Shown in pieces: positions 2,841 to 25,180 of a stretch of DNA of 64,000 nucleotides. The stretch lies in assembly GCF_024502345.1 (NCBI RefSeq), contig NZ_JALDNN010000001.1. One strand, given 5' to 3'. The notes under the pieces were generated by a model, which saw nothing but the letters and a program-made list of their open reading frames with translations, was not told where the DNA came from and searched no databases. The stretch is from Escherichia coli. GTDB lineage: Bacteria > Pseudomonadota > Gammaproteobacteria > Enterobacterales > Enterobacteriaceae. The position numbers and the translations under genes are program-made. How positions within the stretch are numbered: the first letter of the stretch is position 1; every line of letters begins with the position of its first letter.

Positions 2841-3506
2841 ATGAAAACGGGACCGTTAAACGAAAGTGAGTTGGAATGGCTGGACGATATTCTGACCAAA
2901 TACAACACTGACCACGCCATCCTTGATGTGGCGGAGCTGGACGGTTTATTGACGGCGGTGTTGAGTTCTCCGCAAGAGATTGAACCGGAACAGTGGCTGG
3001 TTGCCGTGTGGGGTGGGGCTGACTATGTGCCGCGCTGGGCGTCAGAGAAAGAGATGACGCGCTTTATGAACCTGGCTTTTCAACATATGGCCGATACCGC
3101 AGAGCGTCTGAACGAATTCCCGGAGCAGTTTGAGCCGTTATTCGGCTTGCGAGAAGTTGATGGCAGCGAGCTGACGATTGTTGAGGAGTGGTGCTTTGGC
3201 TATATGCGGGGCGTGGCACTTTCTGACTGGTCAACATTGCCCGATTCGTTAAAACCAGCGCTGGAGGCGATTGCGCTGCACGGTACTGAGGAAAACTTCG
3301 AGCGGGTAGAAAAGATGTCGCCAGAAGCGTTTGAAGAGAGCGTAGATGCCATTCGACTGGCGGCGCTTGATCTACATGCGTACTGGATGGCGCATCCGCA
3401 GGAAAAAGCTGTTCAGCAACCGATCAAAGCAGAAGAGAAACCGGGGCGTAACGATCCTTGCCCGTGCGGTAGTGGTAAGAAATTTAAGCAGTGCTGCCTG
3501 CATTAA
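2841..3506 (+). CDS. yecA: SEC-C motif protein YecA (UPF0149)
   Basis: 221 aa; C-terminal [17 protein letters not shown] metal-binding motif; matches K-12 YecA. Confidence 0.93.
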
Positions 3507-3567: not shown

Positions 3568-4779
3568 TCACCCCACTTCTGGTAACAACCCTGCCGCAAT
3601 CAAAAATTGCACGCCAATCACAGCAATACCACAGAGAAACACCACCACCAGCGCCGGACGACCACCTTTGACCCGGTAACCCGCCTGAGGATTGTGCTTT
3701 CTGCTTTGCCAGGTCAACAGCGAAGGGATAATCAATGCCAGTACCGCCAGCGCCACACCGGCGTAACCCAGCGCCATCACAAATCCTCGTGGATAAAACA
3801 GTGCAAACGCCAACGGCGGCAGAAAGGTAATTGCACCAGTTTGCAACCGTCCACCAACGGTATTTGAACGCTGAAATAAATCAGCCAGATAATCAAATAA
3901 GCCTAACGCAACGCCGAGAAATGACGTGGCGAGGGCTAAATCAGCAAATAAATGCACTGCCAGCTCAACATGCGGAGAGGCCACCATTTCGCGTAACGCC
4001 TGTAACAGCCCGTTTAATCCAGCATGATTAGCCAGCAATCCCATAAAGGTTGTTGAATCAATGCTGCCAAGCGTTGCCACCTGCCAGAAAATATATGCCA
4101 CCAGGGGGATCGCACTACCGGTTATAAACACCCAGCGTAGCTTACGAACGTTGCCATCCATATAGCTGACAATACTCGGCACGCTACCGTGAAAACCAAA
4201 TGAGGTAAAAATCACCGGGATTGCTGACAGAGCCAGCCCCTGTTGCAACGGCAGGGTTAAAAGATTCACTTTGTGAATATGCGGTAGCAGCAATACCAGC
4301 ATCACCACCAGAAAAATAATTTTGGCGCTGAACAGAAAACGGTTAAATAAATCGACCAGCGATGTTCCAACACAAACCACGCCACCGGCAACAAAAGTGA
4401 ACAACAGCACGCCAGCGGTTGCCGACATTGAAATACCTGTCCAGTCGCTGATGCTGGAGGCCAACAATTCACCGGCACCGCTGATGTATGCCGCAGTCAG
4501 AGCATACATTAAGAACATCATACTGAAGCCCGTCAGCCACTGACCGTAGCGTCCCAGATAGCGTTTTGCCAGCGTGCCAAGACCGGTATCTGCCGGAACA
4601 TGCTGGTACACCTCCAGCAGTAATAGCGCCGTGTAGCACATCAACGCCCAAAGCCCAATCAACAAGATTAACGTGACGCTAAAACCAACACCTGCCGCAG
4701 CCAGCGGCATTGCCAGCATGCCTGCGCCAATTGTGGTTCCCGCCACGATAAAAACACTTCCCAGAGTTCTGTTTTTCAC
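3568..4779 (-). CDS. tyrP: Tyrosine-specific transporter
   Basis: 403-aa polytopic membrane protein matching K-12 TyrP. Confidence 0.95.
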
Positions 4780-4870
4780 GCTTTCTTCTGTCCTGACGAT
4801 CTTTATGAGTGATATCTGCGGCGCAGGTTAAGGCATAACGGCTGCTTCGTCAAACCGACGTTACATATGG

Positions 4871-4888
4871 TGTAAATATAAATGTACA
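4871..4888. promoter_or_regulatory. TyrR box-like site upstream of tyrP
   Basis: TGTAAA-tataaa-TGTACA, one mismatch to TGTAAA-N6-TTTACA, about 90-110 nt upstream of the tyrP start. Confidence 0.5.
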
Positions 4889-4969
4889 ATAAAAAGCATT
4901 CAGTTCTGCTCTGGCGCAAAGTCTTCATAAGCGGCAATCGCTACGCTAGGCTTTTTTTGAGGAGGAACG

Positions 4970-5209
4970 ATGGACTCTATTCACGGTCATGAAGTGTTAA
5001 ATATGATGATTGAATCAGGTGAGCAATATACGCATGCCAGTCTGGAAGCTGCGATTAAAGCGCGTTTTGGTGAACAGGCACGTTTTCACACCTGCTCGGC
5101 AGAAGGGATGACAGCGGGAGAGCTGGTGGCGTTTCTGGCAGCAAAAGGCAAATTTATTCCTTCTGAAGACGGTTTTTCGACCGATCAGAGTAAGATTTGC
5201 CGTCACTGA
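4970..5209 (+). CDS. yecH: DUF2492 protein YecH
   Basis: 79 aa matching K-12 YecH. Confidence 0.9.
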   Translation: MDSIHGHEVLNMMIESGEQYTHASLEAAIKARFGEQARFHTCSAEGMTAGELVAFLAAKGKFIPSEDGFSTDQSKICRH

Positions 5210-5246
5210 TTTGAAACGGCGGCAGAAAACCTGCCGCCGGAGAGCA

Positions 5247-5744
5247 TTAGTTTTGTGTGTCGAGGGTAGAGAGTTCTTTGTCGATAAAATACAGACCTTC
5301 GCCGCTTTTGCCTGCCAGGCTTAATTTATCAATAATCGATTTGAACAGTTTCTCTTCTTCATGCTGCTCAGAAACATACCATTGCAGGAAATTAAATGTT
5401 GGGTAGTCCTGATTGGTCATTGCAGCATGAGCCAGTTCGTTAATTTTCTGGGTGATTAATTGTTCGTGTTTATAGGTTTCCTGGAATAATTCATCAAGTG
5501 AGGAATATTCAGCAAACGGAGATTCAACGGTATTAATACGCGGTAAATTGCCGGTATCAGTCAGGTAATCAAACAGACGCTGCATATGCGTCATCTCTTC
5601 CTGGGCGTGACGGCGCAGGAACGCGGCAGCACCTTCGAAGGTATGATAGCTGCACCAGGCGCTCATTTGCTGATAAAGCAGTGAAGAGTACAGTTCCAGG
5701 TTCATCTGCTCATTAAGTTTTTCAATCATTTCTGGTTTCAGCAT
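5247..5744 (-). CDS. ftnA: Ferritin FtnA
   Basis: Track ORF is 170 aa; internal start [10 protein letters not shown] gives the known 165-aa FtnA. Confidence 0.93.
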
Positions 5745-5914
5745 GATAGTGCTCCACAAAGGTTATATTTGTTGCTGTGGCGTCACTATAATTTGTTATT
5801 TTATTATTTGCAAAAGGTAAAATATAAACTTCAATTATTAAAAATACGAATGGGAATAAAACGCATTACCGCTATTTCTTTAATCAGCGAAGATCCCCTC
5901 GCTGATTAAAATAT

Positions 5915-6238
5915 TTAGAGAAAGACAGGGAAGGCGGAATGATGGCACTGATATGACAAAGTGAATTCCGTATTCAAACATAAGGAACCCGCAAAAAGGC
6001 TACAGTTGCCTACTGGCTGACCAAAGGGGATCGCGTGGGTATAGCCTTCCTGCTGGCATGCGCGATCGGCGATCCCGCGACTGACATAACGATCGGTATG
6101 GGCATGCTGCAAAAAAGCCTGGTTATAAACCAACCGTACAATACCTGTTGCCGCGTCAACTTCGCTCACATGGGCCTGGCGAGTAACCGTACACCCCGCC
6201 AGCGTTATTAATGAAAGAGTCAGAATCAGAAGTCTCAT
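5915..6238 (-). CDS. yecR: Lipoprotein YecR
   Basis: 107 aa; signal peptide with lipobox LAGC; matches K-12 YecR. Confidence 0.9.
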   Translation of the reverse strand: MRLLILTLSLITLAGCTVTRQAHVSEVDAATGIVRLVYNQAFLQHAHTDRYVSRGIADRACQQEGYTHAIPFGQPVGNCSLFAGSLCLNTEFTLSYQCHHSAFPVFL

Positions 6239-6402
6239 GGTCCAGCCAGAAGAGTAAGAGAAAGCACTATTTTACGCGTTACAGCGCTGCGACAATGACC
6301 GGAAAAGACGCCTGGCAGGCGCTATTTCTTGCCATCTGTAGGTGTCAGAAATAGGGGGGCTGTTTTTTGATTATCATTTTTATAACATTAAAGGGGTGTT
6401 TA

Positions 6403-6418
6403 TGTGATTTGTATCACA
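6403..6418. promoter_or_regulatory. CRP binding site upstream of azuC
   Basis: TGTGA-tttgta-TCACA, a perfect TGTGA-N6-TCACA. Confidence 0.7.
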
Positions 6419-6432
6419 TAAAGATTGATTTT

Positions 6433-6448
6433 TGTGATGGTTGTCATA
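6433..6448. promoter_or_regulatory. Second CRP-like site upstream of azuC
   Basis: TGTGA-tggttg-TCATA. Confidence 0.5.
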
Positions 6449-6500
6449 TTATAAGCGCAAAGACAATAACACCTGTATAACAAATGGTCGGAGTGCCGCG

Positions 6501-6587
6501 ATGAAACTGCGCAAAATCCTGAAAAGTATGTTCAATAACTATTGCAAGACGTTCAAAGACGTACCGCCAGGCAATATGTTCCGATAA
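6501..6587 (+). CDS. azuC: Small protein AzuC (28 aa), within the AzuCR dual-function RNA locus
   Basis: atgaaactgcgcaaaatcctg... encodes MKLRKILKSMFNNYCKTFKDVPPGNMFR; below the 60-aa track cutoff; terminator follows immediately. Confidence 0.85.
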   Translation: MKLRKILKSMFNNYCKTFKDVPPGNMFR

Positions 6588-6589
6588 CA

Positions 6590-6616
6590 AAAAACCTGCT
6601 CCGGCAGGTTTTTTTG
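6590..6616 (+). terminator. Rho-independent terminator of azuC
   Basis: cctgctccggcagg hairpin followed by a T7 run. Confidence 0.85.
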
Positions 6617-6701
6617 TGTCCTGATGACGGTGGATGTGACTATCGCTGAAGATGTGAAGCCGCTACTATAACGGCTTTCAAAATGCTATCAGGAGTTTAC
6701 G

Positions 6702-6953
6702 ATGTCCCAGCCGCTGAATGCCGATCAGGAACTGGTTTCTGATGTGGTTGCTTGCCAGTTGGTTATCAAACAAATTCTGGATGTTCTCGATGTAATCGCG
6801 CCCGTTGAAGTTCGCGAAAAAATGTCCAGCCAGCTGAAGAATATCGACTTTACTAACCATCCCGCCGCCGCAGACCCGGTCACCATGCGGGCAATCCAAA
6901 AAGCCATCGCGCTGATTGAACTCAAGTTTACCCCACAAGGCGGATCCCATTAA
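6702..6953 (+). CDS. yecJ: DUF2766 protein YecJ
   Basis: 83 aa matching K-12 YecJ. Confidence 0.9.
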
Positions 6954-7031
6954 AAAACCGCTGCTTCAAAAAGATGAGGCAGCGGTTTCTCAAAAACTTC
7001 ATCGGCGCAATGCATTAGCGCCGATGTATGA

Positions 7032-7535
7032 TCAATGCAGCTGATGCGACACGACATTCAGAACATGTTGGTCGGTCTGCACTGGGCACATACCAGCAAG
7101 TTTCGCACTGCGCACTTCATCAAGAATGATTTGCAGCAACAGACCATCATGCTGCTGTTCTTTTTCCAGATCGCGCAGGAAATTGACGGTTGAATCATCA
7201 TTCAGTTCTTTCGCTTCATCGGCTAACTGTGCCAACGTACTAGAACGTTGCTCGTATTCTTCCATCGTTTTTTGGAACAGTTCTTCCAGAGAGTTCAGTT
7301 TTTCACCGGGAACATCAATGGCTTTAACGATGGGGGTAGCGCCGACACTCTTCATAAAGTTAAACATGCGCATCATTTGGGTCACATTACTCTGTGCCTG
7401 GGCGCGAAGGAAAGTGGCGGTGCCGTTCAGACTCTGTTCAGAACACCAGTTACTCAGGTGAAGGTAGAGATTGGATGCGTAAAACTCGCGGTTAATTTGA
7501 GAGTTGAGTTTGAGAAGCATTCCAGCGGTTGCCAT
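7032..7535 (-). CDS. ftnB: Ferritin-like protein FtnB
   Basis: 167 aa matching K-12 FtnB. Confidence 0.92.
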
Positions 7536-20848: not shown

Positions 20849-20876
20849 TTCTCCCGATTTCCTCAATTGAAATGAA

Positions 20877-20904
20877 CCCGATGATCTGCGCATCGGGTTT
20901 TTTA
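20877..20904 (+). terminator. Rho-independent terminator after cheW
   Basis: cccgatg-atctgcg-catcggg hairpin followed by a T-run. Confidence 0.8.
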
Positions 20905-20934
20905 TTTCAATTTCGCGGCGGGTGGCATCAGCAA

Positions 20935-20961
20935 TAAAGTTTCCCCCCTCCTTGCCGATAA
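20935..20961 (+). promoter_or_regulatory. Sigma-28 (FliA) class 3 promoter of the tar-tap-cheRBYZ operon
   Basis: TAAAGTTT-N11-GCCGATAA, an exact match to the FliA consensus. Confidence 0.9.
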
Positions 20962-20992
20962 CGAGATCAACTTGTTTTCAGGAAGGTGCCTT

Positions 20993-22654
20993 ATGATTAA
21001 CCGTATCCGCGTAGTCACGCTGTTGGTAATGGTGCTGGGGGTATTCGCACTGTTACAGCTTATTTCCGGCAGTCTGTTTTTTTCTTCCCTTCACCATAGC
21101 CAGAAGAGCTTTGTGGTTTCCAATCAATTACGGGAACAGCAGGGCGAGCTGACGTCAACCTGGGATTTAATGCTGCAAACGCGCATTAACCTGAGTCGTT
21201 CAGCGGTACGGATGATGATGGATTCCTCCAATCAACAAAGTAACGCCAAAGTTGAATTGCTCGATAGCGCCAGGAAAACATTGGCGCAGGCAGCGACGCA
21301 TTATAAAAAATTCAAAAGCATGGCACCGTTACCTGAAATGGTCGCTACCAGTCGTAATATTGATGAAAAATATAAAAACTATTACACAGCGTTAACTGAA
21401 CTGATTGATTATCTAGATTATGGCAATACTGGAGCTTATTTCGCTCAGCCAACCCAGGGAATGCAAAATGCAATGGGCGAAGCGTTTGCTCAGTACGCCC
21501 TCAGCAGTGAAAAACTGTATCGCGATATCGTCACTGGCAACGCAGATGATTACCGATTTGCCCAGTGGCAACTGGCGGTTATCGCGCTGGTGGTGGTATT
21601 GATTCTGCTGGTGGCGTGGTACGGCATTCGCCGTATGTTGCTTACTCCGCTGGCAAAAATTATTGCTCACATTCGCGAAATCGCCGGTGGTAACCTGGCG
21701 AATACCCTGACCATTGACGGGCGCAGTGAAATGGGCGACCTGGCGCAGAGCGTTTCACATATGCAACGCTCTTTGACTGACACCGTCACTCATGTCCGCG
21801 AAGGTTCAGATGCCATCTATGCCGGTACCCGTGAAATTGCGGCGGGCAACACCGATCTTTCCTCCCGTACTGAACAGCAGGCATCCGCGCTGGAAGAAAC
21901 TGCCTCCAGCATGGAGCAGCTCACCGCGACAGTGAAGCAAAACGCCGATAACGCCCGCCAGGCCTCGCAACTGGCGCAAAGTGCCTCCGACACCGCCCAG
22001 CACGGCGGCAAAGTGGTGGATGGCGTAGTGAAAACGATGCATGAGATCGCCGATAGTTCGAAGAAAATTGCCGACATTATCAGCGTTATCGACGGTATTG
22101 CCTTCCAGACTAATATCCTCGCGCTGAATGCCGCGGTTGAAGCCGCGCGTGCGGGTGAACAGGGCCGTGGTTTTGCCGTGGTGGCGGGTGAAGTGCGTAA
22201 TCTTGCCAGTCGCAGCGCCCAGGCGGCAAAAGAGATCAAAGCCCTCATTGAAGACTCCGTCGCACGCGTTGATACCGGTTCGGTGCTGGTCGAAAGCGCC
22301 GGGGAAACAATGAACAATATCGTCAATGCTGTCACTCGCGTGACTGACATTATGGGCGAGATTGCATCGGCATCGGATGAACAGAGCCGTGGCATCGATC
22401 AAGTCGCATTGGCGGTTTCGGAAATGGATCGCGTCACGCAACAGAACGCATCGCTGGTGCAGGAATCAGCTGCCGCCGCCGCTGCGCTGGAAGAACAGGC
22501 GAGTCGTTTAACGCAAGCGGTTTCCGCGTTCCGTCTGGCAGCCAGCCCACTCACCAATAAACCGCAAACACCATCCCGTCCTGCCAGTGAGCAACCACCG
22601 GCACAGCCACGACTGCGAATTGCTGAACAAGATCCAAACTGGGAAACATTTTGA
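20993..22654 (+). CDS. tar: Methyl-accepting chemotaxis protein II (aspartate/maltose)
   Basis: Start [11 protein letters not shown] gives 553 aa; C-terminal NWETF pentapeptide. Confidence 0.95.
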
Positions 22655-22699
22655 CGAGTATTTACTAACGCGGTCATTGCCGCCTGATGGGGAGCGTTG

Positions 22700-24301
22700 A
22701 TGTTTAATCGTATTCGAATTTCGACCACGCTGTTTTTAATTTTGATTCTCTGCGGGATCTTGCAGATTGGCAGTAACGGCATGTCTTTTTGGGCATTTCG
22801 CGACGATTTGCAACGACTGAATCAGGTCGAGCAGAGCAATCAGCAACGTGCGGCATTAGCGCAAACTCGGGCGGTAATGTTACAGGCCAGTACCGCGCTG
22901 AACAAAGCGGGCACTCTGACGGCACTTAGCTATCCGGCGGATGACATTAAAACGTTGATGACGACGGCGCGCGCCAGTCTGACGCAATCCACCACGCTGT
23001 TTAAAAGTTTTATGGCGATGACTGCGGGCAACGAGCACGTCAGGGCATTGCAAAAAGAGACGGAGAAAAGTTTTGCCCGCTGGCACAACGATCTCGAACA
23101 TCAGGCGACCTGGCTTGAAAGTAATCAACTTTCGGATTTCCTCACAGCGCCGGTGCAGGGATCACAGAATGCGTTTGACGTTAACTTTGAGGCCTGGCAG
23201 GTGGAGATCAACCATGTGCTGGAAGCCGCCAGTGCGCAAAGCCAGCGTAACTATCAGATTTCGGCGCTGGTGTTTATCAGCATGATTATTGTTGCGGCGA
23301 TCTACATCAGCAGTGCGCTGTGGTGGACGCGCAAGATGATTGTTCAACCACTGGCCATTATCGGTAGCCATTTTGACAGCATTGCTGCGGGTAATCTGGC
23401 GCGTCCGATTGCGGTATATGGTCGCAACGAGATCACCGCCATTTTTGCCAGCCTGAAGACCATGCAGCAGGCTTTGCGTGGGACGGTGAGTGATGTGCGT
23501 AAGGGAAGCCAGGAGATGCACATTGGTATCGCGGAGATTGTCGCAGGCAATAACGATCTCTCAAGTCGTACCGAACAGCAGGCGGCATCGCTGGCACAAA
23601 CGGCCGCCAGTATGGAGCAATTAACCGCCACGGTAGGGCAAAACGCCGATAACGCACGACAGGCGTCGGAACTGGCAAAAAATGCCGCGACAACGGCGCA
23701 GGCGGGCGGTGTTCAGGTCAGTACCATGACTCACACCATGCAGGAGATCGCCACCAGCTCGCAAAAAATTGGCGACATTATCAGCGTTATCGACGGAATT
23801 GCTTTCCAGACCAATATTCTGGCCCTGAATGCGGCAGTGGAAGCGGCTCGCGCCGGAGAGCAGGGGCGTGGTTTTGCGGTAGTGGCAGGTGAAGTGCGCA
23901 ATCTTGCCAGCCGTAGCGCGCAGGCAGCAAAAGAGATCAAAGGGCTGATCGAAGAGTCAGTCAATCGTGTCCAGCAGGGTTCGAAACTGGTGAATAACGC
24001 CGCCGCGACCATGACCGATATTGTCAGTTCGGTGACCCGCGTGAACGACATTATGGGAGAAATTGCTTCGGCGTCGGAAGAACAACGGCGGGGGATTGAG
24101 CAGGTTGCACAGGCTGTCAGCCAGATGGATCAGGTGACTCAGCAGAACGCCTCGCTGGTAGAAGAAGCGGCGGTGGCAACGGAACAACTGGCGAATCAGG
24201 CCGACCATCTTTCGTCGCGTGTGGCGGTATTTACCCTTGAAGAACATGAAGTAGCACGACATGAGTCGGCGCAGTTACAAATTGCGCCAGTGGTATCCTG
24301 A
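22700..24301 (+). CDS. tap: Methyl-accepting chemotaxis protein IV (dipeptide/pyrimidine)
   Basis: ATG at 22700 gives 533 aa; tar paralogue. Confidence 0.95.
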   Translation: MFNRIRISTTLFLILILCGILQIGSNGMSFWAFRDDLQRLNQVEQSNQQRAALAQTRAVMLQASTALNKAGTLTALSYPADDIKTLMTTARASLTQSTTLFKSFMAMTAGNEHVRALQKETEKSFARWHNDLEHQATWLESNQLSDFLTAPVQGSQNAFDVNFEAWQVEINHVLEAASAQSQRNYQISALVFISMIIVAAIYISSALWWTRKMIVQPLAIIGSHFDSIAAGNLARPIAVYGRNEITAIFASLKTMQQALRGTVSDVRKGSQEMHIGIAEIVAGNNDLSSRTEQQAASLAQTAASMEQLTATVGQNADNARQASELAKNAATTAQAGGVQVSTMTHTMQEIATSSQKIGDIISVIDGIAFQTNILALNAAVEAARAGEQGRGFAVVAGEVRNLASRSAQAAKEIKGLIEESVNRVQQGSKLVNNAAATMTDIVSSVTRVNDIMGEIASASEEQRRGIEQVAQAVSQMDQVTQQNASLVEEAAVATEQLANQADHLSSRVAVFTLEEHEVARHESAQLQIAPVVS

Positions 24302-24319
24302 AGTGATTGAGAAGGCGCT

Positions 24320-25180
24320 ATGACTTCATCTCTGCCCTGTGGGCAAACGTCTTTATTGTTACAGATGACCGAGCGCCTGGCGCTTTCCGACGCGCATTTT
24401 CGGCGGATAAGTCAATTGATCTATCAACGAGCCGGGATCGTTCTGGCTGACCATAAACGCGACATGGTTTACAACCGACTGGTTCGTCGTTTGCGTTCGC
24501 TGGGAATGACGGATTTCGGTCATTATCTGAACTTGCTGGAATCTAATCAGCACAGCGGTGAGTGGCAGGCGTTTATCAATTCGCTGACCACGAATCTGAC
24601 GGCATTTTTCCGTGAGGCACATCATTTCCCTCTTCTCGCGGATCACGCACGTCGCCGTTCTGGCGAGTATCGCGTATGGAGCGCGGCGGCTTCGACCGGC
24701 GAAGAGCCGTACAGCATTGCGATGACGCTGGCTGACACATTGGGCACCGCGCCCGGACGCTGGAAAGTGTTTGCCAGTGATATCGACACCGAAGTGCTGG
24801 AAAAAGCCAGAAGCGGTATCTATCGCCATGAAGAGTTGAAAAACCTGACGCCGCAGCAACTGCAACGGTATTTCATGCGAGGGACGGGACCGCATGAAGG
24901 GCTGGTACGCGTGCGTCAGGAGCTGGCGAACTATGTTGATTTTGCCCCGCTGAATTTACTGGCGAAACAGTACACCGTGCCGGGGCCGTTTGATGCGATC
25001 TTCTGTCGTAACGTCATGATCTACTTCGATCAAAATACCCAGCAGGAGATTTTGCGCCGCTTTGTTCCGCTCCTTAAACCCGACGGATTGCTGTTTGCGG
25101 GTCACTCTGAAAACTTTAGCCACCTTGAGCGCCGCTTCACGCTGCGTGGTCAGACGGTGTATGCGCTAAGTAAGGATTAA
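24320..25180 (+). CDS. cheR: Chemotaxis methyltransferase CheR
   Basis: 286 aa. Confidence 0.96.

Follow-up and report, generated by a model that had tools for sequence, protein, structure and literature searches.

The tar-tap locus

The window, i.e., the whole stretch of 64,000 nt of Escherichia coli DNA that was analysed, carries tar and tap in the standard cluster of the species, motAB-cheAW-tar-tap-cheRBYZ (Table 1). Tar matched the NF011622 profile with 1194.3 bits (curated cut-off of 900), residues 1-553 lying on profile positions 1-553, and Tap matched NF007309 with 1182.2 bits (curated cut-off of 903), 1-533 on 1-533; the RefSeq names at a 99.7%-identical locus are "tar" and "tap", at matching positions. 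With both equivalog scores above their cut-offs and RefSeq in agreement, the gene identities and the tandem paralogy given in an earlier note on this DNA were correct. Tar comprises a TarH sensor (PF02203), a HAMP domain (PF00672) and an MCPsignal domain (PF00015), each above the Pfam gathering score, and Tap has the same architecture in Pfam. Their translations end differently, Tar in ...QDPNWETF and Tap in ...LQIAPVVS, which lacks the NWETF pentapeptide and is of the low-abundance type. Tap is the predicted mediator of dipeptide taxis through DppA, an assignment made by equivalog homology only.

The sigma-28 (FliA) promoter in front of tar was the sole match in the 64 kb to the pattern TAAA-N14-16-GCCGATAA, with 0 expected. 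Because the tar-tap spacer holds no match to this pattern, tap is read as transcribed from the tar promoter. Three minus-strand ORFs across the homology block (21806-22441, 23731-24051 and 22399-22782) were considered as genes and rejected, having no Pfam match; they are taken to be shadow ORFs of the Ala/Glu/Gln-rich coiled-coil coding sequence.

Table 1. Features of the tar-tap locus, with positions in the window
Feature	Position	Strand	Basis or remark
Terminator-like hairpin and T-run, 3' of cheW	20874..20909	+	
Sigma-28 (FliA) class-3 promoter, perfect consensus TAAAGTTT-N11-GCCGATAA, 5' of tar	20935..20961	+	Consensus match
tar, aspartate/maltose chemoreceptor (MCP-II)	20993..22654	+	553 aa; NF011622 equivalog
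Shared signalling-domain homology block, tar copy (Tar aa ~281-489)	21833..22458	+	BLASTN
18-nt exact block GCAAAACGCCGATAACGC, tar copy, encodes QNADNA	21937..21954	+	BLASTN
24-nt exact block CGACATTATCAGCGTTATCGACGG, tar copy, encodes DIISVIDG	22072..22095	+	BLASTN; conserved in other strains
16-nt exact block, tar copy	22226..22241	+	BLASTN
NWETF codons, Tar C-terminal pentapeptide	22637..22651	+	Sequence read; missing in Tap and in natural Tar-Tap hybrids
tar-tap spacer, 45 nt	22655..22699	+	Sequence read
GGGGAG ribosome-binding site in the spacer	22689-22694	+	Sequence read
tap, dipeptide chemoreceptor (MCP-IV)	22700..24301	+	533 aa; NF007309 equivalog
Junction repeat of the 1374-bp tap deletion, upstream copy GAATCAGGTCGA	22819..22830	+	
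Shared signalling-domain homology block, tap copy, 1701 nt downstream in register	23534..24159	+	Repeat search, BLASTN
18-nt exact block, tap copy	23638..23655	+	BLASTN
24-nt exact block, tap copy	23773..23796	+	BLASTN
16-nt exact block, tap copy	23927-23942	+	BLASTN
Junction repeat of the 1374-bp tap deletion, downstream copy GAATCAGGCCGA	24193..24204	+	

Extent of the similarity

The earlier note had described long near-identical stretches, in direct orientation, in the signalling-domain coding regions of both genes. The direct repeat is real: the window holds exactly two copies of the 23-mer GACATTATCAGCGTTATCGACGG, one at 22073-22095 and the other at 23774-23796, both on the plus strand (0 copies expected by chance), within the signalling-domain coding parts of tar and tap and in register at an offset of 1701 nt. 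"Long near-identical" is, however, not what the comparison gave. A repeat search returned tar-tap matches, one of 300 nt with 77% identity and one of 185 nt with 73%, and BLASTN a single alignment of 634 columns (approximately 630 nt) with 74.6% identity and 8 gap openings. A segmental duplication that confounds assembly would be expected to keep at least approximately 95% identity for hundreds of bases and to share exact sequence beyond the length of assembler k-mers or read seeds. By codon alignment the signalling regions are 78% identical in amino acids and 73.7% in nucleotides, and the best 20-codon (60-nt) window reaches 83%, with none above. No direct repeat between tar and tap is longer than the exact runs of 24, 18 and 16 nt, and they have no k-mer in common at k>=25. 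When codon columns were shuffled the longest run averaged 18.2 ± 4.0 nt, with P(>=24) = 0.089, and an exact run of 24 nt is about what 74% identity yields. The suggestion that the pair is a source of mis-assembly likewise fell away, given the zero sharing at k>=25 and the same collinear tar-tap in 4,321 complete genomes, and the risk of mis-assembly from this similarity is negligible.

Origin of the similarity

The two genes are 46% identical in amino acids and 54% in nucleotides over their whole length, but the ligand-binding halves are only 20% and 38% identical, respectively, and the kinase-control domains 72-78% in amino acids overall, rising to 100% across 56 residues around the hairpin tip. 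For comparison we used the unlinked receptor genes tsr, trg and aer, taken from K-12. Between tar and tsr the identity is 58% (amino acids) and 62% (nucleotides) for the whole gene and 85.6% and 77.7% for the signalling region. Because the unlinked tsr is nearer to tar than tap is, we attribute the similarity to an old signalling domain conserved at the protein level. On this reading tar and tap, which are adjacent, co-oriented and co-transcribed, are old paralogues whose ligand-binding halves have diverged almost completely, with purifying selection on the protein keeping the cytoplasmic kinase-control domains alike; protein conservation and shared codon usage leave approximately 630 nt of directly repeated DNA at about 75% identity, in which perfect runs are few and measure 16-24 nt.

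Gene conversion and recent duplication were both rejected as sources of the similarity in the comparison with tsr, trg and aer. Ongoing conversion between the tandem copies, i.e., concerted evolution, might be favoured by their adjacency and co-orientation and by the hairpin core, which is invariant in protein and whose 56 codons are 85.7% identical in DNA between tar and tap, marginally above the 82% between tar and tsr. It is nevertheless very improbable as what maintains the similarity, since tar-tap did not exceed tar-tsr on any overall or signalling-region measure, the longest exact blocks belong to unlinked pairs (28 nt for tar-tsr and 29 nt for tap-aer), the same codon is used at identical amino acids as often in the linked pair (53%) as in the unlinked one (54%), the longest tar-tap run falls within the shuffle expectation, and no mosaic tar/tap patches were seen in any allele examined. 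The picture implied by the earlier note, of a recent tandem duplication with long near-identical stretches, free recombination and assembly collapse, draws on the common architecture, the tandem position and the shared 24-mer, but is refuted by the identity profile; the overall identity, the ligand-binding half and the want of any common k-mer at k>=25 speak against it, and it has almost no probability left when both genes are collinear in so many complete genomes and fused in only 3 of the 5,386 with the locus.

Natural tar-tap fusions

Fusions were searched for with a query in which the tar segment 5' of the homology was joined to the tap/cheR segment 3' of it. This flank-joining search found the in-register 1701-bp fusion in 3/5,386 complete E. 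coli genomes (approximately 0.06%), those of ETEC4088 (CP122629), ET474 (CP100954) and PEC389 (CM168012), which are two pig isolates and a frog isolate; only in these three did a single place cover the query, over exactly the predicted 1375 bp each time, and the annotated order is cheW, a 1608-bp "tar" and cheR. Tracing of informative sites gave one clean switch from tar to tap in every fusion, between window positions 22071 and 23797 in ET474 and PEC389, which is the 24-nt block, and between 21936 and 23656 in ETEC4088, which is the 18-nt block; none of the three genomes had its crossover in the 16-nt block. ET474 and PEC389, which come from different countries and hosts, are identical over 4375 bp, and because ETEC4088 differs from this pair at 64 positions, at least two fusion events are counted. 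Judged from these two independent mapped events, the junctions appear to favour the longest blocks of identity; with a uniform distribution of crossovers along the 626 nt, the two events would both lie within the two longest blocks with a chance of approximately 0.005 (our own arithmetic). The proposal that the pair is a recombination substrate giving fusions thus holds, borne out by three natural fusions at the 24- and 18-nt blocks, but with a weak substrate and a rare outcome.

The product is a hybrid of 535 aa without the NWETF tail of Tar, joined at Tar residues ~315-321 or ~360-368. Tar contributes the sensor, the transmembrane helices, the HAMP domain and the first methylation helix, and Tap the hairpin tip, the second methylation helix and its NWETF-less tail. 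The hybrid gene occupies the position of tar, immediately 5' of cheR, and each of its halves differs by 0-2 nt from ordinary tar or tap alleles. Of the two exact hybrid proteins, one was located on 28 contigs (58 index blocks) and the other on 71 (140 index blocks), so that they recur in dozens of independent assemblies of varied source, deposited by many submitters; every contig read with a hybrid protein had the context cheW-hybrid-cheR; a protein database clustered at 90% identity conceals them within the Tar cluster, e.g., P0002.

Mechanism of the deletion

Mis-assembly having been put forward in the earlier note, the three fusion genomes could be thought artefacts of an assembly that merged tar with tap. 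This is very improbable, because exact sharing of at most 24 nt is too short for collapse at usual k-mer sizes or with long reads, and because identical hybrid proteins recur in the same context among many submitters, as does one identical allele in two complete genomes of different origin. Taken as genuine, the fusions complete a reading that we hold to be very probable overall, in which old paralogues are alike through conservation of their proteins and their exact runs serve as occasional points of 1701-bp deletion. At such runs crossover or misalignment removes the in-register segment and leaves a single gene, with the sensor half of Tar joined to the signalling tip and tail of Tap. The enzymology could be RecA-dependent, at the limit of minimum identity, or RecA-independent, by slipped misalignment. 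RecA/RecBC recombination has a minimum identity of 23-27 bp (PMC12074656), and mismatch repair aborts exchange between diverged sequences (PMC12074656, PMC8918686). Against that minimum, only the 24-nt block is at the threshold, the next perfect blocks having 18 and 16 nt, and the flanks are approximately 25% diverged.

We lean slightly towards short-repeat slippage independent of RecA, because one junction block has 18 nt and because the junction repeats of other natural deletions at the tar-tap locus match exactly over no more than 6-9 nt, which is typical of RecA-independent events. Canonical RecA/RecBCD recombination across the diverged block of approximately 630 nt, an alternative in mechanism only, has a little less than an even chance. 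The 24-nt junction block does reach the minimum and the flanking similarity could stabilise pairing, and by the repeat-deletion work of the Lovett laboratory a spacing of 1.7 kb is reportedly large for slippage; yet the other junction is under the minimum, flanks so diverged should provoke abortion by mismatch repair, and the reciprocal duplication (tar, tap'-'tar hybrid, tap) was found in 0/5,381 genomes with a 313-nt flank query.

Intragenic loss of tap

A class of genomes with 61% coverage was considered as tar-tap recombinants and rejected, as it corresponds to a 1374-bp deletion within tap. This natural loss of tap was present in 1,059/5,426 genomes (approximately 20%), left tar intact and a 152-bp remnant of tap, and has at its junction the 12-nt repeats GAATCAGG(T/C)CGA, matching at 11 positions. 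Loss of tap in phylogroup B2 and in uropathogenic E. coli is credited to Lane et al. (2006) and Borziak et al. (2013) in the summaries given by PMC3559539 and PMC12623472. It resembles the fusions in being a natural deletion at the locus that abolishes Tap function, but lies within tap, leaves tar untouched and involves no tar-tap exchange. The frequent loss of tap is thus an intragenic short-repeat deletion, unrelated to tar-tap fusion.

Comparison with known hybrids and implications

The shared signalling domain of tar and tap and the hybrids formed by tar-tap deletion have been known since the 1980s. Slocum, Halden and Parkinson (1987, J Bacteriol 169:2938) are said to have obtained spontaneous laboratory tar-tap deletions in K-12 strains giving hybrid transducers, reportedly with 5' tar joined in frame to 3' tap and with the sensing specificity of Tar kept. 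The present alleles are likewise in-frame fusions by deletion between homologous 3' regions, but come from wild isolates instead of K-12 in the laboratory, with their junctions at the 24-nt and 18-nt blocks. Weerasuriya, Schneider and Manson (1998, J Bacteriol 180:914) reportedly engineered both Tar-Tap (Tarp) and Tap-Tar (Tapr) chimeras, of which Tarp is said to sense aspartate and to signal and adapt poorly alone. Tarp shares with the natural hybrids the Tar sensing domain and the Tap signalling sequence, without the NWETF tail for CheR/CheB docking, but was reportedly joined within the linker that directly follows TM2, whereas the natural fusions retain the HAMP domain and first methylation helix of Tar. 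Tsr, Trg and Aer have the same conserved kinase-control domain, with exact blocks similar to or longer than those of tar-tap, but their genes do not adjoin tar or tap, and because of this an exchange with tsr, trg or aer would rearrange the chromosome and give no simple viable deletion.

We expect the hybrids to have lost dipeptide taxis, to keep aspartate/maltose sensing and to depend on help from Tsr for adaptation. That they are maintained as useful in some animal-associated E. coli lineages, the two junction types being convergent solutions, is improbable. If true, an aspartate/maltose sensor made from the high-output tar position would carry the hairpin, second methylation helix and tail of Tap, so that adaptation and the balance of the receptor array could be retuned, and dipeptide and pyrimidine sensing would be discarded.

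Full-text literature searches for natural tar-tap fusions found only genotypes such as delta(tar-tap) and two classic references. The biology is already known, and what is new is a small population-level footnote: wild isolates do carry such fusions, and their junctions fall in the two longest blocks of perfect identity. To this is added a calibration, in that a similarity of about 75%, explained by conservation of the protein, is harmless to assembly and fusion is rare. Annotation pipelines call the hybrids plain "tar", and counts of the chemoreceptor repertoire therefore overlook that both tap and the NWETF tail have been lost.

Natural fusions of tar and tap

Rare natural fusions of the adjacent chemoreceptor genes tar and tap exist, and some of them are joined at the very motif from which the earlier note had proposed that the pair could recombine. 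A 702-nt query was built by joining tar 21480-21830, which ends shortly before the homology, to 24205-24555, which holds the 3' end of tap and the 5' end of cheR; pieces were merged only when no further apart than half of the query's length plus 500 nt, so that the two halves can come together only after an in-register loss of about 1.7 kb. This happened in exactly 3 of 5,386 matching genomes, each with the predicted span of 1375 bp, namely ETEC4088 (pig, Belgium), ET474 (frog, China) and PEC389 (pig, South Korea), all of them annotated with cheW, a single 1608-bp 'tar' and cheR. Tracing of the junctions over 785 sites distinguishing the window's tar from its tap revealed a single clean tar-to-tap switch in every hybrid. 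ET474 and PEC389 are tar-type up to 22071 and tap-type from 23797, placing the crossover within the 24-nt block that contains the quoted motif, and ETEC4088 is tar-type up to 21936 and tap-type from 23656, with the crossover within the 18-nt block. Since no difference separates ET474 from PEC389 over 4375 bp and ETEC4088 departs from both at 64 positions, at least two fusion events took place. Under a uniform distribution of crossovers along the 626-nt block, both events would fall in the two longest runs with a probability of about 0.005 (n = 2).

Each half of the hybrids is 0-2 nt away from ordinary tar or tap alleles, and both blocks are kept in other strains. The exact hybrid proteins recur in public data, one on 28 contigs and the other on 71 (58 and 140 index blocks), with the cheW-hybrid-cheR context in every hybrid contig read, a recurrence that counts against an assembly artefact. 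The reciprocal duplication product, sought with a mirror-image query, was found in none of 5,381 genomes. In the draft assembly GCA_907172595.1, which carries a hybrid with the 24-nt junction, the downstream cheR is split into ORFs of 210 and 89 aa (4627-5486 of the retrieved segment) by an apparent frameshift. No report of natural tar-tap fusions was found in the literature searched, which covered few of the relevant journals. Spontaneous tar-tap deletions were reportedly described by Slocum, Halden and Parkinson in 1987 as yielding hybrid transducers; those arose in laboratory K-12, whereas the three complete genomes found here with a fusion come from pig and frog isolates.

Coordinates of the features discussed (in the window unless stated)
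Feature	Position	Strand	Remarks
ORF, mechanical list	20972-22654	+	first of two consecutive ORFs
ORF, mechanical list	22697-24301	+	second of two consecutive ORFs
tar, 553 aa	20993-22654	+	ATG start as in RefSeq
tap, 533 aa	22700-24301	+	ATG start as in RefSeq
sigma-28 promoter	20935-20961		perfect consensus TAAAGTTT-N11-GCCGATAA; sole such match in window
C0465 sRNA match (Rfam)	20868-20945	-	cheW-tar intergenic region
Quoted 23-mer	22073-22095; 23774-23796		exact at both places
24-nt identity block	22072-22095; 23773-23796
18-nt identity block	21937-21954; 23638-23655
Antisense ORFs	21806-22441; 22399-22782; 23731-24051	-	211, 127, 106 aa
Repeats, 1374-bp tap deletion	GAATCAGGTCGA 22819-22830; GAATCAGGCCGA 24193-24204		junction 3419-3430 in retrieved deleted locus
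Repeats, 222-bp tar deletion	22152-22168; 22374-22390		two 17-nt, 15 positions matching; PI24 locus ~2173-2191
CAGGCG repeats, 81-bp tap deletion	23579-23584; 23660-23665		LD39-1 locus ~3600-3605
K-12 tsr	5658-7313		within retrieved K-12 segment
K-12 aer	5557-7077	-	within retrieved K-12 segment

Possible pathway and expected behavior of the hybrids

The fusions are in-register 1701-bp deletions whose junctions lie within blocks of perfect identity. Exchange by RecA/RecBC requires a minimum perfect identity of 23-27 bp (PMC12074656), and mismatches beside the initiating block lead to its abortion by MutS/MutL (PMC8918686). That the fusions are RecA events at the identity limit is possible, though we consider it somewhat less likely: the 24-nt block does stand at this minimum, but the 18-nt block is under it, the flanks are about 25% diverged, and the other natural deletions at the locus (1374, 222 and 81 bp) joined at repeats with exact matches still shorter than the fusion blocks. 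For these reasons we lean slightly toward RecA-independent slipped misalignment between short direct repeats, which may have removed the 1701 bp.

The hybrids take from Tar residues 1 to ~320 or ~365, that is, the sensor, transmembrane helices, HAMP domain and first methylation helix, and from Tap the hairpin tip, second methylation helix and tail, so that they end in ...QIAPVVS and not in ...NWETF. Judging by published NWETF-less receptors and Tar-Tap chimeras, reportedly the work of Feng in 1997 and Weerasuriya in 1998, aspartate and maltose sensing by the hybrid would be expected to need the help of Tsr to adapt, and dipeptide taxis would be expected to be lost.

Extent and origin of the tar-tap similarity

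The earlier note had described long, near-identical stretches in direct orientation. The quoted 23-mer is indeed exact at both places (chance expectation, none) and the repeat is direct, with an offset of 1701 nt, but the identity was overstated. BLASTN aligned the two genes in one piece over 634 columns, 74.6% identical and with 8 gap openings (21833-22458 against 23534-24159), the repeat families measured 300 nt (77%) and 185 nt (73%), no 20-codon window exceeded 83%, the longest exact runs were just 24, 18 and 16 nt, and no k-mers were shared at k>=25. When the codon columns of the in-register block were shuffled, the longest run averaged 18.2 +/- 4.0, with P(>=24) = 0.089; therefore the 24-mer is as expected from ~74% identity. 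Because the two genes have no 25-mers in common, are ~75% identical and lie concordantly in thousands of complete genomes, mis-assembly of the pair is not a realistic concern, contrary to what had been suggested.

For comparison with unlinked receptors, tar and tap were put into a five-way codon alignment with tsr, trg and aer from K-12. Adjacent tar and tap share 46% aa / 54% nt overall and 78% / 73.7% in the signalling region (Tar 281-489), against 58% / 62% and 85.6% / 77.7% for the unlinked tar and tsr. The same codon is used at same-amino-acid positions in 53% (tar-tap) and 54% (tar-tsr), and exact blocks equal to or longer than that of tar-tap occur in unlinked pairs (tar-tsr, 28 nt; tap-aer, 29 nt). 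This higher tar-tsr identity, equal codon use and longer unlinked blocks point to what a strongly conserved kinase-control domain ordinarily leaves in the DNA, with no sign of recent tandem duplication or gene conversion. The ligand-binding and transmembrane part of tar and tap is just 20% aa / 38% nt identical, and a run of 56 residues around the hairpin tip is identical in both proteins. A megablast cross-match of tap and aer reached 83.6% over 122 nt.

The locus and its other variants

The tar-tap locus itself is ordinary and well understood. Tar and Tap scored 1194 and 1182 bits against the NCBIfam equivalogs for methyl-accepting chemotaxis proteins II and IV (cut-offs 900 and 903), and each carries a TarH sensor, a HAMP and an MCPsignal domain. 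The gene order is motA-motB-cheA-cheW-tar-tap-cheR-cheB-cheY-cheZ-flhB, with 99.33% identity to K-12 over 10 kb. Window 20900-24400 was matched by 5,425 of 5,426 complete E. coli genomes (top match 99.7% identical), and tar, tap and cheR are annotated in one collinear place, with at least 80% of it covered, in 4,321. A terminator-like hairpin follows cheW upstream of the sigma-28 consensus, and the 45-nt tar-tap spacer holds a ribosome-binding site and nothing else. The C0465 match (111.6 bits; gathering score 40) is antisense to this hairpin and adjoins the promoter. The window's Tar and Tap are natural alleles, present as exact proteins on 32 and 77 public contigs. Just 3 nucleotide changes, all non-synonymous, separate its tar from that of strains ARS-C301 and LD39-1; relative to K-12 these are D182G, A305S, in the first methylation helix, and S424A. 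The antisense ORFs that overlap the tar-tap junction and the parts coding for the signalling domains had no Pfam matches and are probably shadow ORFs of coiled-coil coding sequence.

That B2/uropathogenic strains have lost tap is already known, according to PMC3559539 and PMC12623472, and here this loss resolves to a single 1374-bp junction between GAATCAGG(T/C)CGA repeats, found with a junction-specific query in 1,059 of 5,426 complete E. coli genomes, leaving a 152-bp tap remnant and tar intact. Being intragenic in tap, this deletion is ruled out as a product of tar-tap homology. The locus is 222 bp short in strains PI24, 673 and 472, whose shortened tar carries the annotation 'Tar ligand binding domain-containing protein'. 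The one of them sequenced, PI24, has an in-frame deletion between GGTGAACAGGGCCGTGG and GATGAACAGAGCCGTGG that removed roughly Tar residues 387-460, hairpin tip included, with tap intact. The locus is 81 bp short in LD39-1, 30COLEC, NCTC9066, LR-33 and FDAARGOS_1250, and in LD39-1, the one sequenced of these, the first methylation helix of Tap has lost residues ~294-320 through an in-frame deletion. Strain A23, from a capybara (NZ_CP028752.1, 1977394-1984245), has an annotated IS1A transposase in its tar-tap region, adjoining a truncated 'Tar ligand binding domain-containing protein'.
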